Below are positions 13,184 to 45,278 of a DNA stretch of 45,507 bases, piece after piece (the stretch's first letter is position 1; each line of letters starts with the position of its first letter). Under the pieces are notes generated by a model. That model saw only the letters and a list, made by a program, of their open reading frames with translations, was not told the origin of the DNA and did not search any database. This DNA comes from Candidatus Shapirobacteria bacterium. GTDB lineage: Bacteria > Patescibacteriota > Microgenomatia > UBA12405. The stretch is taken from NCBI GenBank assembly GCA_028704885.1, contig JAQWEN010000001.1, positions 175,172-220,678 of the forward strand, given 5' to 3'. The translations under genes and the position numbers were made by a program.

Positions 13184-13272
13184 TTAAAATTTCTCGTCAC
13201 GGAATTTTTATGTAATCGGCGAATGTGCGTAGCACGTTCGATATTACAAAAAATTGTGACTTTAAAATTTTA
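13184..13272 (+). repeat. Long palindromic dispersed element, copy 1 of 3
   Basis: Core GAATGTGC-GTA-GCACGTTC at 13221-13239 inside outer stems GTCAC/GTGAC and AATTTTT/AAAAATT. Confidence 0.85.
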
Positions 13273-13290
13273 AAAATAATAAAAATAATT

Positions 13291-13344
13291 TCTCCCTTTG
13301 TTAAGGGGAGATGGTCCCGCTGCCGCGGGACCAGAGAGGATTTT
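13291..13344 (+). repeat. REP-like double hairpin
   Basis: TCTCCCTT-TGTT-AAGGGGAGA followed by perfect GGTCCCGC-TGCC-GCGGGACC, then AGAGAGGATTTT. Confidence 0.6.
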
Positions 13345-13362
13345 TTAGTGTAAAATGAACAT

Positions 13363-14352
13363 ATGGAATATAAAATTGGATTTTTTGGAGTGAAAAGTTG
13401 GGAAAGAGAAATAATTGAAAAAGAAATTATAAAATTGGATAGTTTTGGAATTGGAATTTTTGAAGATGAAGTTCAAGACAACCTAGAATTGGCTGATAAG
13501 TATGACATAATTTCTCCTTTTGTTTATTCAAAAATGGATAAGCAGGTATTGGATAAGTTGCCAAATTTAAAAATGATTGCCACCAGGTCAACTGGCTTTG
13601 ATCATATAGACATTGAAGAATGTAGAAAAAGAAAAATAGAAGTTTGTAATGTGCCGGTTTACGGGTCATCAACAGTAGCTGAATATGCAATTGCTTTAAT
13701 GTTGGCGATTACTAAAAAAATAGTTGAGGCTCATCAGTCGGTGGAGAATGGTGAGTTTAATCCGGAGGGTTTAACTGGAATTGATATCAATGGAAAAACA
13801 TTGGGTGTCATAGGTGTTGGAAACATCGGTCAAAATGTGGTGCACATCGCTAAAGCCTTGGGAATGAAAGTTTTAGGAGTGGACGCAAGATTAACTCCTG
13901 AAACGGCAAAAAAAATCGGTTGTAAAATTGTGGATTTAGAAACTTGTTTGAAGATGTCGGATATTATTACTTTACATGTGCCATCATTGCCGGAAACTTT
14001 TCATTTAATTAATAAAAAGAATATTAAACTGATGAAAAAGGGAAGTTATCTGGTAAATACTTCAAGAGGACCAGTAATTGAAACTGAGGCAATTGTGTGG
14101 GCTTTGAATAATAAAATTTTAACTGGAGCAGCTCTGGATGTAACTGAGGAAGAAAATTTATTGGAAAGTATGAGTGTGGTAATGAGTAAAAAAATTACTA
14201 AAGATGATTTACAGGAAGTGTTGAGTTTTCATATGCTGCGCGATCGGGATGATGTAATTTTTACACCTCATAATGCCTTTAATACTAAAGAAGCAATCGG
14301 CAGAATTGTGGAGACAACAGTGGAAAATATTAAGAAATTTATGGTAAAGTAA
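13363..14352 (+). CDS. D-isomer specific 2-hydroxyacid dehydrogenase (D-lactate dehydrogenase-like)
   Basis: ATRSTGFDHID, NVPVYG, GVIGVGNIG, TLHVP, NTSRG, ALDV, TPHNAFNT. Confidence 0.9.
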   Translation: MEYKIGFFGVKSWEREIIEKEIIKLDSFGIGIFEDEVQDNLELADKYDIISPFVYSKMDKQVLDKLPNLKMIATRSTGFDHIDIEECRKRKIEVCNVPVYGSSTVAEYAIALMLAITKKIVEAHQSVENGEFNPEGLTGIDINGKTLGVIGVGNIGQNVVHIAKALGMKVLGVDARLTPETAKKIGCKIVDLETCLKMSDIITLHVPSLPETFHLINKKNIKLMKKGSYLVNTSRGPVIETEAIVWALNNKILTGAALDVTEEENLLESMSVVMSKKITKDDLQEVLSFHMLRDRDDVIFTPHNAFNTKEAIGRIVETTVENIKKFMVK

Positions 14353-14357
14353 GCTTT

Positions 14358-15254
14358 ATGGAAATTGGAAGAGGAGAGTTTTTACCTAAAATAGCAGATC
14401 GACCAGCTGGAGTGGACATGAATCAATTTAAGGGTTTGAAAAATGAAGATACATTTAGTGAAAGATCAATTGCTTTTGATAAGAATAAAATTTTGGAAAA
14501 AAGAGAGGAATTCACAATAAATCACAGTGAAAATAGATTTGGTTATAAGGGTGGTGATGCTTTGGAATCGGTTTTGGATAAGTGGGCTAATTTAAGTGGC
14601 TGGTTTGGAGGAGAAAGTGTTTTGATTAAGGCTAGTGAATTTGAAGATTATTTTAATGGAGTTGATTTTTATTTGGAATTTAAGGGTCAAAATCAAGATG
14701 ATCTTAAAAAAAGAGTGATCTTGGCGATTGATGCAACTTCGGCAGTTGATAATAGTAAATTGATAGGCAAGATTGATTCAGCTGTTTATAAGGTAACAAC
14801 TCGAGGTGGAGTAGATATTAAATATTACAAATCGGCAATAGATGGATCGATGGGCTATTTAAAGGGAGCTATTCCAATAGTAATTGGAGTAGATCACAAT
14901 CATGCTGATGATTTTCAGATCCATGCTGGTGAAAATAATTTTTTCAGAAATCACCCGGATCAAGTAAGCTTTTTAGAAGAAATTAATTTGCAATTAGATT
15001 ATTATCTGACTTTGGAAATAGCAGATGAAATGAGAACTAAAATTGAAGAGGCAAAAAAAATAATGAGTCAAGTCTGGGAAGAAAAGAAAGGTTTAAAGAA
15101 AATAGTTGAAGATAAAACTGCCAGTGAATTAAATTATTATGTAGAAAACAAAACTAGGGAAAGAAAAATAATTTCGGAATCTAAAAGGGAAGAAATAAAA
15201 ACAGTGGGCAAAAAAGTGTCTTTGCCTTACGGAATTAAACCGACAAAAAAATAA
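14358..15254 (+). CDS. Hypothetical protein, possibly PD-(D/E)XK-like fold
   Basis: 298-aa ORF; EFEDYFNGVDFYLEF...LAIDAT has the spacing of a restriction-like core. Fold assignment is inference. Confidence 0.7.
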   Translation: MEIGRGEFLPKIADRPAGVDMNQFKGLKNEDTFSERSIAFDKNKILEKREEFTINHSENRFGYKGGDALESVLDKWANLSGWFGGESVLIKASEFEDYFNGVDFYLEFKGQNQDDLKKRVILAIDATSAVDNSKLIGKIDSAVYKVTTRGGVDIKYYKSAIDGSMGYLKGAIPIVIGVDHNHADDFQIHAGENNFFRNHPDQVSFLEEINLQLDYYLTLEIADEMRTKIEEAKKIMSQVWEEKKGLKKIVEDKTASELNYYVENKTRERKIISESKREEIKTVGKKVSLPYGIKPTKK

Positions 15255-15298
15255 AAAGCCCCAAACTGAGAAGATAAATCCTCTAAGAAGGGGGCTTT
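15255..15298 (-). terminator. Long-loop terminator shared by cassette B and the converging + gene
   Basis: AAAGCCCC (15255-15262)/GGGGCTTT (15291-15298), followed by a T run on the minus strand. Confidence 0.7.
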
Positions 15299-15323
15299 GA
15301 TGAATGAAAAAAAGAAAAGAGGT

Positions 15324-15677
15324 TCATTGTTGAATGAATATTCGGTAAAACCATTCAATGTTAGTCCAAGTGGCTCGATTATGCCAAATAAGAATATCAA
15401 GTTTTTTACTTAAAGTAAGGCATAAAACGCCAGTACCTTCATTCAAAACGAAATGATTTTCTTTATCAGCCATAAAAGCTTCACTTACCTCGTTCTCTTT
15501 AATAAATCGATATTGTTCTATCTTTTTGGAAAAGATAAAACTGGTTTGATTGTCGTCGGTTTTTAGATTAATAAATAAGCCGGTGAGGGAATCAGGAAGA
15601 GGTTTTTCATTTTTAATGAAGAAAATTAAAGGGCTGGGTGATTTTGGAATTGATCTAATTCCAATTACACAAGGCAC
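15324..15677 (-). CDS. Orphan hypothetical protein (cassette B)
   Basis: SD AAAGGAGG ahead of an in-frame GTG at 15677, preferred over the ATG at 15716; own promoter and terminator. Confidence 0.65.
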   Translation of the reverse strand: MPCVIGIRSIPKSPSPLIFFIKNEKPLPDSLTGLFINLKTDDNQTSFIFSKKIEQYRFIKENEVSEAFMADKENHFVLNEGTGVLCLTLSKKLDILIWHNRATWTNIEWFYRIFIQQ

Positions 15678-15739
15678 TTTAGTTTGCCTCCTTTCTTTAT
15701 ATAAGTAAAAGTACAAATACTTCGCTATTGAAGTTATTT

Positions 15740-15768
15740 ATTATACTATAGGATATAAAAAAAGTCAA
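15740..15768 (-). promoter_or_regulatory. Sigma70 promoter of cassette B with TATCCTATA in the spacer
   Basis: TTGACT-17 bp-TATAAT; box at 15747-15755. Confidence 0.85.
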
Positions 15769-15773
15769 GAAAA

Positions 15774-15814
15774 AGCCCTGATTGTTTTATTTTTGATTTA
15801 AAACAGCCAGGGCT
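15774..15814 (-). terminator. Two-tier terminator of cassette C
   Basis: AGCCCTG/CAGGGCT outer and TGTTTT/AAAACA inner stems; its T run leads directly into the -35 of cassette B. Confidence 0.75.
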
Positions 15815-15847
15815 GAGAAATGGATTGGAGGTAGCGGCGTGATTGAA

Positions 15848-44444: not shown

Positions 44445-44526
44445 TCAAAAACACCTCCTTCCTTTTGAAGCGGGCCTACCGAATGGTTTCCCATGCTTCT
44501 TGTATATAAACAAACTCTACCTGATG

Positions 44527-44577
44527 GTAAGTCTGATAACTGAAAATTAGAAGTTAATTTTCAAATATCAGACTTAC
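44527..44577. other. Long hairpin in the cassette G leader
   Basis: GTAAGTCTGATA/TATCAGACTTAC (12 bp) and TGAAAATTA/TAATTTTCA (9 bp). Confidence 0.7.
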
Positions 44578-44692
44578 TTTAAGGTATTCAAATAACAACT
44601 ATTTTTTAAAGTACTGCGTAGAGGGGGAAGTAAGCGCAAATGCCTGCTTTCACTAAACGCTAGTTAATAATCTAGATGATTATTATGCCTGG

Positions 44693-44732
44693 AGTGTATC
44701 ATTTAATATCAATAAAGTCAAGTTATAGGATA
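44693..44732 (-). promoter_or_regulatory. Sigma70 promoter of cassette G with TATCCTATA box
   Basis: TTGACT(44721-44716)-17 bp-TACACT(44698-44693); box at 44724-44732. Confidence 0.75.
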
Positions 44733-44774
44733 GTTTTAAAGAAAATATACCGATAAATCAGTATCGTGTTTTAA

Positions 44775-44808
44775 GGCAAAATTTGTCATTTTATTTCAAA
44801 TTTAGACC
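44775..44808 (+). repeat. Bipartite 34-bp element, copy 2
   Basis: GGCAAAATTTG-tcattttat-TTCAAATTTAGACC. Confidence 0.75.
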
Positions 44809-44820
44809 TTAAAAAACGAA

Positions 44821-44841
44821 AAAGCCCCGGGGAGGGGCTTT
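44821..44841 (-). terminator. Intrinsic terminator of unit H
   Basis: AAAGCCCC/GGGGCTTT stem followed by TTCGTTTTTT on the minus strand. Confidence 0.8.
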
Positions 44842-44855
44842 CTAATATTAAAGAT

Positions 44856-44986
44856 AAAGGAGAAACGGGGTGCGAAACTCTAGAGGAGCCACACTCCAAA
44901 TCTCTCCTTTGTCTTTAATTTAAATTGTTCAAAGGAGAAACGGGGTGCGAAACTCTAGAGGAGCCACACTCCAAATCTCTCCTTTG
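44856..44986. repeat. Two identical 56-bp hairpin modules with a 19-bp linker
   Basis: AAAGGAGAAACGGGGTGCGAAACTCTAGAGGAGCCACACTCCAAATCTCTCCTTTG at 44856-44911 and 44931-44986. Confidence 0.97.
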
Positions 44987-45033
44987 AACAATTTGTTATT
45001 TAAAAGTACGAATTATTGAATAATTCTAATGTT

Positions 45034-45062
45034 ATTATAGTTCTATTATAGGCTCTTGTCAA
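45034..45062 (-). promoter_or_regulatory. Consensus sigma70 promoter of unit H
   Basis: TTGACA-17 bp-TATAAT; spacer contains GCCTATA. Confidence 0.85.
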
Positions 45063-45186
45063 GTAGTAAGTAATTTAATAATTAGGCACAAAATAGGGTT
45101 TTAATAAGATTATGTATCATAAAAAGAATAGTTATGGGTGTAAATTGATTTATATAAAAATACATACTTATGATGTATTTAAACTT

Positions 45187-45278
45187 AATTTAAATTCTCA
45201 TTACAAATTTTTTATGTCTGGTGAATGTGCGGCGCACGTTCAAGGCCACAAAAAATTGCAATTTCGAATTTAAATTGA
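45187..45278 (+). repeat. Long palindromic dispersed element, copy 3 of 3
   Basis: Core GAATGTGC-GGC-GCACGTTC at 45223-45241; terminal AATTTAAATTC/GAATTTAAATT inverted repeat. Confidence 0.8.

Follow-up and report, generated by a model that had tools for sequence, protein, structure and literature searches.

The palindromic, MITE-like hairpin repeats of about 100 nt that are found at gene ends, such as Rickettsia RPE, Neisseria Correia, enterobacterial ERIC/IRU and pneumococcal RUP/BOX, are lineage-restricted and are gained and lost between close species. Single-strand origins and ssi signals (sso/ssi) of ssDNA phages and rolling-circle plasmids are long imperfect hairpins as well, which work in one orientation relative to the fork, on the lagging-strand template. 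They are interchangeable between families, have defined motifs and occur as single copies on the plasmid or phage. IS200/IS605 elements (IS608, ISDra2) and their miniature derivatives (PATEs) are recognised through imperfect hairpins with unpaired or mismatched bases and make no target duplication; they are inserted and excised on the lagging-strand template, which locks their orientation to the direction of replication (PMC6006769). Y1 enzymes work on the template of the lagging strand, bind a folded strand strand-specifically and use stem irregularities as determinants, and RAYT (TnpA-REP) binds its folded single strand in this way (PMC6006769, PMC8266576).

We analysed a window of 45,507 nucleotides from a Candidatus Shapirobacteria genome, in which a first-pass annotation had described three copies of a long-hairpin element and had proposed either a non-autonomous mobile element (MITE/REP-like) or a structured RNA family. 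All three copies of this element, here called family A, are present on the plus strand with the core GAATGTGCG-NN-GCACGTTC, for which 0 matches are expected in a dinucleotide-preserving shuffle (Table 1). The compensatory stem changes of that description hold and lie in the middle stems (GTCAC/GTGAC in copy 1, GTCAT/ATGAC in copy 2), and the 11-nt terminal inverted repeats of copy 3 (AATTTAAATTC/GAATTTAAATT) were also found. The gene settings are as described. Copy 1 is flanked by an 85-aa HTH gene on the minus strand and a 2-hydroxyacid dehydrogenase gene on the plus strand. Copy 2 begins 2 nt past the stop codon of glyA (SHMT) and also abuts the stop codon of a convergent 84-aa gene, and copy 3 is antisense to a minus-strand NTP-transferase (GalU-like) gene, whose stop codon is 4 nt beyond the end of the copy.

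Table 1. Hairpin elements of families A, B and C in the window (positions are those of the window).
Feature	Positions	Strand	Description
Family A copy 1	13181..13276	+	Subfamily A1, core CGGCGAATGTGCGTAGCACGTTCGAT; full-length covariance-model match, 89.1 bits
Apical hairpin of copy 1	13221..13239	+	GAATGTGC / GCACGTTC, with conserved T.G wobble
Family C double hairpin	13286..13343	-	nhmmer match; beside copy 1, 20 nt before the dehydrogenase start codon
Family B hairpin element	19411..19488	+	…TAAATAGGCAAAATTTGG…CAAATTTAGACCTATTTAACAAAAAAAA
Family A copy 2	40256..40351	+	Subfamily A1; covariance-model match, 77.3 bits
Apical hairpin of copy 2	40296-40314		Equivalent of the copy 1 apical hairpin
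Diverged family B element	44747..44809	+	About 380 nt upstream of copy 3
Family A copy 3	45185..45278	+	Subfamily A2, core CTGGTGAATGTGCGGCGCACGTTCAAGGCCACA, 11-nt terminal inverted repeats; covariance-model match, 104.3 bits
Apical hairpin of copy 3	45223-45241		Equivalent of the copy 1 apical hairpin

The genome-wide search that the annotation had suggested, run with nhmmer and a covariance model, yielded more copies. There are nine family A copies in the 779-kb genome, all within 122-221 kb of contig C1 and on its plus strand. The apical hairpin is extragenic in all nine, and no family A copy was seen in frame inside genes. Family A occurs in 22 of 24 genomes of the same genus, two being without it, and in 0 of 16 genomes of other genera; these hosts have tiny genomes of the Shapirobacteria type (CPR). 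Contig stretches from 17 genomes of the genus hold at least 84 non-redundant copies. In the other 22 genomes of the genus that carry the element, the model gave 1-17 matches each (both strands counted), and the unique copy number ranges from 0 to about 10 between species. All copies within a genome differ in sequence, so nothing points to very recent activity. Matches of the family A core to viral contigs were rejected as chance matches.

Each unit of about 95 nt forms an imperfect hairpin, whose apical part has 9 bp, a 3-nt loop and a T.G wobble. The covariation test proposed earlier gave a signal far above both the shuffled and the slid controls: 91.7% of cells are paired, against 75.4% after shuffling (0 of 500 shuffles as good) and at most 51% in the slid controls, and double changes are found in 24 of 31 pairs. 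The wobble is preserved in 58 of 59 copies while the adjoining pairs flip between GC and CG. The outer arms vary by site yet stay complementary, with many AU-to-UA double flips, and the internal loops are conserved pyrimidines. Thus the family A fold is under constraint. As ssDNA, copy 1 folds at -22.3 kcal/mol (z -6.07), and both strands fold about equally well. The apical stem is preceded on its 5' side by TCGG, CTGG, TCAG or GGAAAA according to subfamily.

The orientation of the copies follows the DNA strand. All 84 copies, found in the window and 40 further loci (41 stretches from 17 genomes), are on whichever strand is locally G-rich; they represent about 33 distinct orthologous sites. 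To our knowledge, a strand lock of 100% is known for none of RPE, Correia, ERIC/IRU and RUP/BOX, with which family A shares size, hairpin, gene-end location, lineage restriction and turnover. The GC3 skew on the plus strand is about +0.5 for genes of either direction, and the sign of the skew is constant across the whole 735-kb main contig. The skew is extreme in these genomes; the same pattern has been published for other Microgenomates, where unidirectional replication was proposed (PMC7143001). From the skew, the G-rich strand is probably the lagging-strand template, and replication of these genomes is probably unidirectional too. Read in element orientation, the neighbouring gene pairs of 73 copies are (+,+) in 46, (+,-) in 10, (-,-) in 9 and (-,+) in 8, so that element orientation is independent of the direction of the neighbouring genes.

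These counts bear on the idea that the fold is selected in a structured RNA, for example an antisense or small RNA or a stabiliser of 3'-UTRs. Strong covariation would fit such an RNA, conserved G.U-type wobbles are also typical of functional RNAs, and 56 of the 73 copies follow a co-oriented gene, often 0-10 nt past its stop codon. However, the upstream gene is on the opposite strand in the other 17, nine of which lie between two opposite-strand genes, and none is flipped. Copies are also interrupted and truncated, as mobile DNA is. The Rfam comparison named in the first-pass annotation matched no known family at the gathering or a permissive level, the best permissive matches being plant and animal miRNA hairpins with 15-21 bits against thresholds of 79-200, and the three copies have neither a terminator-like signature nor a consistent promoter. 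The RNA half of the earlier proposal is therefore left unsupported, and we regard it as very doubtful. An intrinsic terminator was rejected: a terminator scan called 0 of the three copies, in which A-runs, not T-runs, follow the apical stem. Canonical terminators with a GC stem and a T-run do exist in this genome. The strand lock regardless of genes, the gain and loss described below and the paired mutations together look like mobile single-stranded-DNA repeats rather than an RNA gene.

The same lock weighs against an ordinary MITE derived from a DDE transposon. Family A is small and intergenic like such elements, and has terminal inverted repeats of 7-13 nt. However, no copy among the 84 is inverted, the conserved part is not the terminal arms, which vary between sites, and no matching autonomous element was found. 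Target-site duplications, which the annotation had proposed to look for, were not seen either. Since the orientation is never random and target-site duplication is absent, family A is not a classical TIR/TSD MITE, and descent from a DDE element is highly improbable.

Copies are gained and lost between species at orthologous sites. Four copies of this genome (e162, f163, g188, which is copy 1, and i220, which is copy 3) are absent from the orthologous sites of the relative G018, although the site of copy 3 is occupied in G009, and the G018 copy at 162139 has no counterpart in this genome. Some of the empty sites are compact gene junctions, e.g. TAAtATG. The empty junctions of relatives that match C1:249053 (in G018) and C1:243117 (in G006) are free of hairpins and only 0-3 nt long, so the species-specific copies there need true de novo insertion. 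No exact insertion junction was definable across the relatives compared, because these are only about 80% identical. The rearrangements centre on the apical hairpin. A family B element is nested after GCACGT in copy c126, which lies outside the window, an 18-nt insert follows GCACGTTC in locus L034, and L054:2136 is an A1/A2 chimera. Remnants of the 3' arm of family A are present at C1:94.2 and 185.75 kb.

If an enzyme acts on family A, it is most likely a Y1 HUH nuclease, and our candidate is RAYT1, an intact RAYT-like Y1 gene at C1:158368-158910, within the 89-250 kb zone of the copies. Its 180-aa product has the HUH motif (HIH) and the catalytic Y-x3-N motif (Y-I-K-D-N). Its top NCBIfam match is the REP-associated tyrosine transposase NF047646 (E 1.6e-15; 57.3 bits, under the curated cut-off of 80), it scores 28.7 bits against PF01797 (cut-off 23), and its best PDB match, a weak one, is 4ER8 TnpA-REP. 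The search for a RAYT or Y1 gene with matching ends, as earlier proposed, thus succeeded for the gene and failed for the ends: the neighbours of RAYT1 are the ppdK terminator and the next gene, not family A. A second RAYT-like gene, RAYT2, is flanked by private GTAGAGACGCCAT GTAG palindromes unrelated to family A. At 17 of 18 Y1/RAYT loci family A is absent, the one match being about 1 kb from an IS200-type gene, and in the two genus members with canonical IS200-type TnpA genes, these genes have no family A copy next to them. RAYT1 orthologues, intact or decayed, were found in seven genus genomes, several of them truncated or with stop codons. Several genomes with 10-14 copies lack an orthologue (no match in G009 and G021; a 41%-identical paralogue in G014), most such genomes being incomplete MAGs, and RAYT-like genes occur also in genera without family A.

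Such patchy co-occurrence of copies and enzyme, as seen in these genomes, would fit a turnover that needs no enzyme, in which co-oriented hairpins are copied, swapped and trimmed through template switching or gene conversion with one another while the lagging strand is made. Orientation would then be conserved because recombination between copies preserves it, and intrastrand repair would keep the arms complementary in hairpins sitting in tightly packed intergenic slots; the site-specific but complementary outer arms and their double flips agree with this, as do the chimeric and partially replaced copies. The same slots are also reused: family A has fixed intergenic slots in common with families B, C and D, hairpin families that are likewise strand-locked (5 of 5, 26 of 27 and 4 of 4 copies, respectively, in this genome). 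The sole minus-strand member among the 27 family C copies is the one in the window. In G018 the family A slots a122, b125 and d152 hold family D, and the slot of copy 2 (h215) holds A2 in G018, an A1/A2 chimera in G009 and A2 with an 18-nt insert in G006. Turnover of this kind does not provide the de novo insertion that the hairpin-free junctions require, and the invariant wobble, like the conserved pyrimidine loops, suggests that some factor recognises the element. We consider it possible but unlikely.

The replacement of one hairpin family by another in the same slots could also be expected if the hairpins were host cis-acting DNA signals for replication or chromosome organisation, namely priming (single-strand initiation), fork-pausing or protein-loading sites. 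Extruded on the lagging-strand template in the first-replicated fifth of a unidirectional chromosome, they could work like the sso/ssi of plasmids and phages, which family A resembles in its long imperfect hairpin, its one orientation and the interchangeability of families. The polarity relative to the skew is absolute, and 57 of 59 mapped copies lie within 160 kb just past dnaA; this zone begins at dnaA and its DnaA-box clusters, with one slot directly beside the boxes in four genomes. Nothing in family A shows priming, however, and two genomes do without any copy, the copy number differs widely between species as given above, most individual sites are dispensable and truncated remnants persist. 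A host signal therefore seems quite unlikely to us.

The explanation that we favour, with about even confidence, is that family A is a non-autonomous hairpin repeat, like REP/REPIN or a mini-element derived from IS200/IS605, which is handled as ssDNA on the lagging-strand template. The G-rich strand would fold into the hairpin of about 95 nt while, as the lagging-strand template, it is briefly single-stranded at the fork. A strand-specific ssDNA enzyme would read the apical stem with its wobble and would cut and rejoin there, so that insertion, excision, swap or interruption would be confined to that strand. The copies would share one orientation because the genomes appear to replicate in one direction.

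Family A resembles the REP/BIME/REPIN-RAYT systems in its extragenic imperfect palindromes, its conserved stem irregularity, its several subfamilies per genome and its long persistence with vertical inheritance and turnover, and RAYT-like genes are likewise present in the genome. Its apical hairpin falls within the size range of REPs (extragenic imperfect palindromes of 20-50 nt), the whole unit being about 95 nt, and REPINs also are hairpins of about 100 nt. However, a REPIN is a doublet of two inverted REPs, whereas family A is one long hairpin with a single apical recognition hairpin, its arms (TTTAAATTCTC-GTYAC-GAATTTTTT) not being palindromic units themselves. In the subfamilies compared, it has no GTAG/CGTC tag at the hairpin foot, which REPs carry. 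It has about 5-10 copies per genome against tens to hundreds for REPs, and it is not beside a RAYT gene, whereas REPtron RAYT genes are flanked by their own repeats. Absolute strand polarity and origin-proximal clustering were not found reported for REPs in the literature examined. The earlier proposal of a REP/MITE-like mobile element is thus borne out as to non-autonomous mobility (presence and absence at sites, nested, chimeric and truncated copies, a RAYT-like Y1 gene), but not as to the features that define a REP. With IS200/IS605 elements family A shares the orientation bias, with lagging-template status taken from the skew, the imperfect hairpin with mismatched bases and the lack of target duplication; those elements have separate left and right subterminal hairpins and a defined tetra- or pentanucleotide target, whereas family A has one hairpin with ends complementary to each other, and its flanks show no conserved tetranucleotide or target motif (5' flank at most 0.4 bits per position). 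As in integron attC sites, a folded single strand would be functional, structure is conserved more than sequence, stem irregularities could set the strand choice, and copies lie directly past stop codons. Unlike attC sites, family A copies are 1-27 kb apart, which is not cassette-sized, with no arrays and no adjacent IntI gene seen.

A hairpin-targeted exchange process is suggested by the way in which unrelated hairpin families share slots, nest in one another and replace each other. A bolder reading, which we hold to be rather improbable, is that families A, B, C and D form a guild of hairpin cassettes that are replication-polar and interchangeable and that a strand-specific ssDNA recombination system exchanges. 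The cassettes would occupy fixed intergenic slots, those of family A in the first-replicated 20% or so of a chromosome replicated one way. The enzyme, RAYT-like Y1 or another, could read the wobble-marked apical stem, and the host might use the cassettes as lagging-strand-template signals. If true, the guild would represent a class of ssDNA element that is new, and the direction of forks in uncultured bacteria could be read independently from the sequence.

With family A, the one-way GC skew of Microgenomates, as yet unexplained (PMC7143001), is matched by a further marker of strand polarity that is independent of it. The insertion sites, about 33 independent ones from the 17 genomes, all agree with the skew, as unidirectional replication and ssDNA-specific insertion predict. 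The covariance model may be used to orient and order the contigs of such MAGs. Mobile DNA is usually said to be almost missing from CPR genomes. If the favoured explanation holds, family A would extend the picture of REP/REPIN and IS200-type elements to CPR bacteria, in a variant with a single wobble-marked hairpin, without the GTAG tag and at low copy number.

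Family A is a real, genus-wide hairpin repeat that is strongly constrained and absolute in its strand polarity. The first-pass annotation had described three copies in one orientation in the window, and these were recovered: the core GAATGTGCG-NN-GCACGTTC is located at window positions 13221, 40296 and 45223, always on the plus strand, and a dinucleotide-preserving shuffle test gave an expectation of 0 chance matches. The middle stems GTCAC/GTGAC and GTCAT/ATGAC and the 11-nt terminal inverted repeat of copy 3 were found as it had read them, and so were the neighbouring genes. 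Copy 1 separates a minus-strand HTH gene from a plus-strand gene for a 2-hydroxyacid dehydrogenase, copy 2 begins 2 nt past the stop codon of glyA (SHMT; Pfam E-value 1e-145), and the end of copy 3 is 4 nt short of the stop codon of a GalU-like nucleotidyl-transferase gene on the minus strand. Copy d152, like copy 3, comes directly behind the stop of a minus-strand gene.

In this genome (G000; 779 kb, 32% GC, three contigs), nine copies were found by profile search, all on the plus strand of contig C1, of which the window covers 175172-220678. A covariance model built on eight of the nine matched 22 of 24 same-genus genomes, against 0 of 16 that represent other genera of the same order, and 40 fetched contig stretches yielded 84 non-redundant copies in 17 genomes. 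Genuine core matches among genome contigs belong to MAGs labelled Shapirobacteria or Woesebacteria; most core matches in genome contigs come from unrelated phyla and are due to chance. Phage or plasmid carriage was rejected, since the three viral-contig core matches are also chance matches, lying in DNA of 51-58% GC with the arms absent.

Every copy folds into a single imperfect hairpin of about 95 nt, with single-stranded DNA z-scores of -3.1 to -6.1. Standard pairs fill 91.7% of cells over 60 copies, compared with 75.4% after shuffling and at most 51% with slid partners. The covariation proposed from the window copies extends to 24 of 31 pairs changed on both sides, and none of 500 shuffles was as good on any measure. 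Outer arms and core differ by subfamily (A1 to A6), and the T.G wobble of the apical stem, already noticed in the window, is retained in 58 of 59 copies while adjoining pairs switch between GC and CG. Also conserved are asymmetric pyrimidine internal loops (5' YTC versus 3' TTC) and asymmetric bulges (5' CGG versus 3' AGG), and the covariance model separates the strands by about 40-55 bits. The conserved wobble and the asymmetric internal loops indicate that the two strands are truly different objects. A parS-like apical palindrome was rejected because the covarying 95-nt stems imply intrastrand pairing; by eye, moreover, the palindrome is unlike the parS consensus. The structured RNA under selection for folding that the annotation had offered as its alternative is very unlikely: Rfam scanning of family A gave nothing meaningful at gathering or permissive thresholds, no described family being matched, and terminator and promoter scans showed no signature at the copies.

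The locally G-rich strand carries all 84 copies. GC skew in the fetched stretches is extreme (0.1-0.44, typically 0.2-0.4). Because the copies occupy about 33 distinct orthologous sites, the strand lock is not one inherited accident. Orientation is not set by gene direction either, the neighbour pairs in element orientation being (+,+) 46, (+,-) 10, (-,-) 9 and (-,+) 8. Either strand folds about equally well as single-stranded DNA, so that hairpin stability does not explain the lock and the idea of a thermodynamically favoured strand is rejected. Nor does the lock result, as an artefact, from C->T mutation pressure acting on a perfect palindrome, since asymmetric loops and bulges, the fixed wobble position and the bit-score gap between strands all count against it. 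The other hairpin families of G000 are strand-locked too (B, 5/5; C, 26/27; D, 4/4).

The skew of C1 keeps a single sign over its entire 735 kb, window included, reaching 0.26-0.33 at 80-260 kb, with lower values of 0.16-0.18 at 120-160 kb, and falling to about 0-0.1 towards the end of the contig. On the plus strand, GC3 skew stands near +0.5 whichever way the genes point. Of 59 copies mappable onto G000, 57 fall at 89-250 kb, an interval that makes up 21% of the genome and has the strongest skew. The dnaA gene (C1:88390-88875) is flanked on each side by clusters of DnaA boxes, and gene and boxes together occupy 87.8-89.3 kb, so that the zone of copies begins at the probable origin. The sign of the skew is unchanged at dnaA, which fits the unidirectional replication proposed as the cause of the same published pattern in other Microgenomates (PMC7143001). 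A host signal linked to replication would suit a place near the origin; we consider it decidedly improbable.

Occupancy of the sites varies between species. The relative G018 is syntenic at about 80% identity, too diverged for exact junctions or target duplications, and its orthologous sites lack copies e162, f163, g188 and i220; conversely, the copy at G018:162139 is absent from G000. Some of the empty sites consist of tightly packed gene junctions, for instance TAAtATG or an overlapping ATGA. An exact-protein look-up for strain-level variants gave no record. The glyA slot of copy 2 is occupied in four species by differing subfamilies, slots a122, b125 and d152 hold a family D long hairpin in G018, and slots with family A in other species hold C or D in G000. 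In addition, a family B member interrupts copy c126 after GCACGT, a copy in G006 carries an 18-nt insertion behind GCACGTTC, a copy in G009 joins A1 and A2 as a chimera, and 3'-arm remnants remain at C1:94.2 and 185.75 kb. Such exchanges and chimeras could arise without an enzyme, through template switching or gene conversion between the hairpin slots; we hold this to be rather unlikely.

Several features accompany family A in the window and nearby (table). In family B, which has five plus-strand copies, TAAATAGGCAAAATTTGG…CAAATTTAGACCTATTTAACAAAAAAAA comes after a short palindrome, either ATACCGATAAATCGGTAT or ACTCCGATAAATCGGAGT; one copy is the member nested within family A, and one adjoins the L10 leader. 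Family D is a third long-hairpin family with the core …CCGTGCTCGCTACCTTCGGGC…GCGCGG…. Of the 27 double hairpins of family C, a single one lies on the minus strand, 20 nt before the start codon of the 2-hydroxyacid dehydrogenase gene, and it provides a Shine-Dalgarno-like AGAGAGGA. Since G018 has the same arrangement, this hairpin may be a co-opted 5' leader. The tandem hairpins CAAAGGAGAGATTTGGAGTGTGGCTCCTCTAGAGTTTCGCACCCCGTTTCTCCTTTG have a motif that occurs nowhere else in the genome and lacks an Rfam match; flanked by a promoter and a terminator, they are a candidate small RNA gene.

Features on contig C1; positions marked C1 are contig coordinates, others window coordinates
Feature	Position	Strand	Remark
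Family A copy a122	C1:122371	+	
Family A copy b125	C1:125838	+	
Family A copy c126	C1:126690	+	interrupted
Family A copy d152	C1:152038	+	
Family A copy e162	C1:162384	+	
Family A copy f163	C1:163432	+	
Family A copy g188	C1:188355	+	window copy 1
Family A copy h215	C1:215432	+	window copy 2
Family A copy i220	C1:220358	+	window copy 3
Family B	19411-19488, 44747-44809; C1:126235-126823 (outside window)	+	second hairpin family
Family C double hairpin	13286-13343	-	
Family D	C1:94111-94206, 97947-98042, 103081-103168, 128385-128480 (outside window)	+	4/4 copies
Two identical tandem 57-nt hairpins	44856-44986	-	
Promoter of tandem hairpins	45062-45034	-	perfect TTGACA-17-TATAAT
Terminator after tandem hairpins	44843-44819	-	GC stem/T-run
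Cobalamin riboswitch	34610-34741	+	Rfam
Ribosomal protein L10 leader	19474-19591	-	Rfam
Two tRNAs	4709-4907	-	Rfam
323-aa membrane protein	43473-44444	-	N-terminal zinc-ribbon-like CxxC…CxxC; fourfold TTVETTAA repeat
RAYT1	C1:158368-158910		180 aa; RAYT-like Y1 gene
RAYT2	C1:645905-646399 (outside window)		bracketed by GTAG palindromes

Scanning with the Pfam model Y1_Tnp, together with a protein search, revealed RAYT1, the gene of a candidate enzyme, in the middle of the zone of copies. It has the motifs HIH and Y-x3-N, its best NCBIfam match is the REP-associated tyrosine transposase at 57 bits (cut-off, 80), and its closest PDB match is 4ER8. RAYT1 holds its syntenic place in G018. No family A copy flanks it, its orthologues are absent or decayed in several copy-carrying genomes, and related genes occur in genera without family A. 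RAYT2, a second RAYT-like gene on the minus strand, has on either side GTAG-tagged palindromes of the form GTAGAGACGCCAT-GC-ATGGCGTCTCTAC, found nowhere else in the genome, which makes it a REPtron without dispersed REPs. Canonical IS200-type TnpA genes were considered in G019 and G014; none adjoins family A.

Family A works like the REP/REPIN and IS200-type systems, but it lacks defining features of both: the GTAG tag and high copy number of REPs, the REP doublet of REPINs, a RAYT gene flanked by the repeat, and the separate left and right ends and target motif of IS200-type elements. A full-text literature search turned up no account of REP-like elements from Patescibacteria. Of the mobile elements named by the first-pass annotation, a DDE-type MITE, to which terminal inverted repeats would point, is extremely unlikely, while a REP-like one remains the best reading. 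Family A may be a non-autonomous element, similar to REP/REPIN or IS200, that is processed on the lagging-strand template while folded as single-stranded DNA; we put this at an even chance only, because we infer both its link to an enzyme and its processing as a single strand. Y1 enzymes take the lagging-strand template as substrate, bind REP and not inverted REP, and need irregularities in the stem (PMC6006769, PMC8266576). The behaviour proposed for family A would match this, and the T.G wobble would be the irregularity that tells the strands apart.
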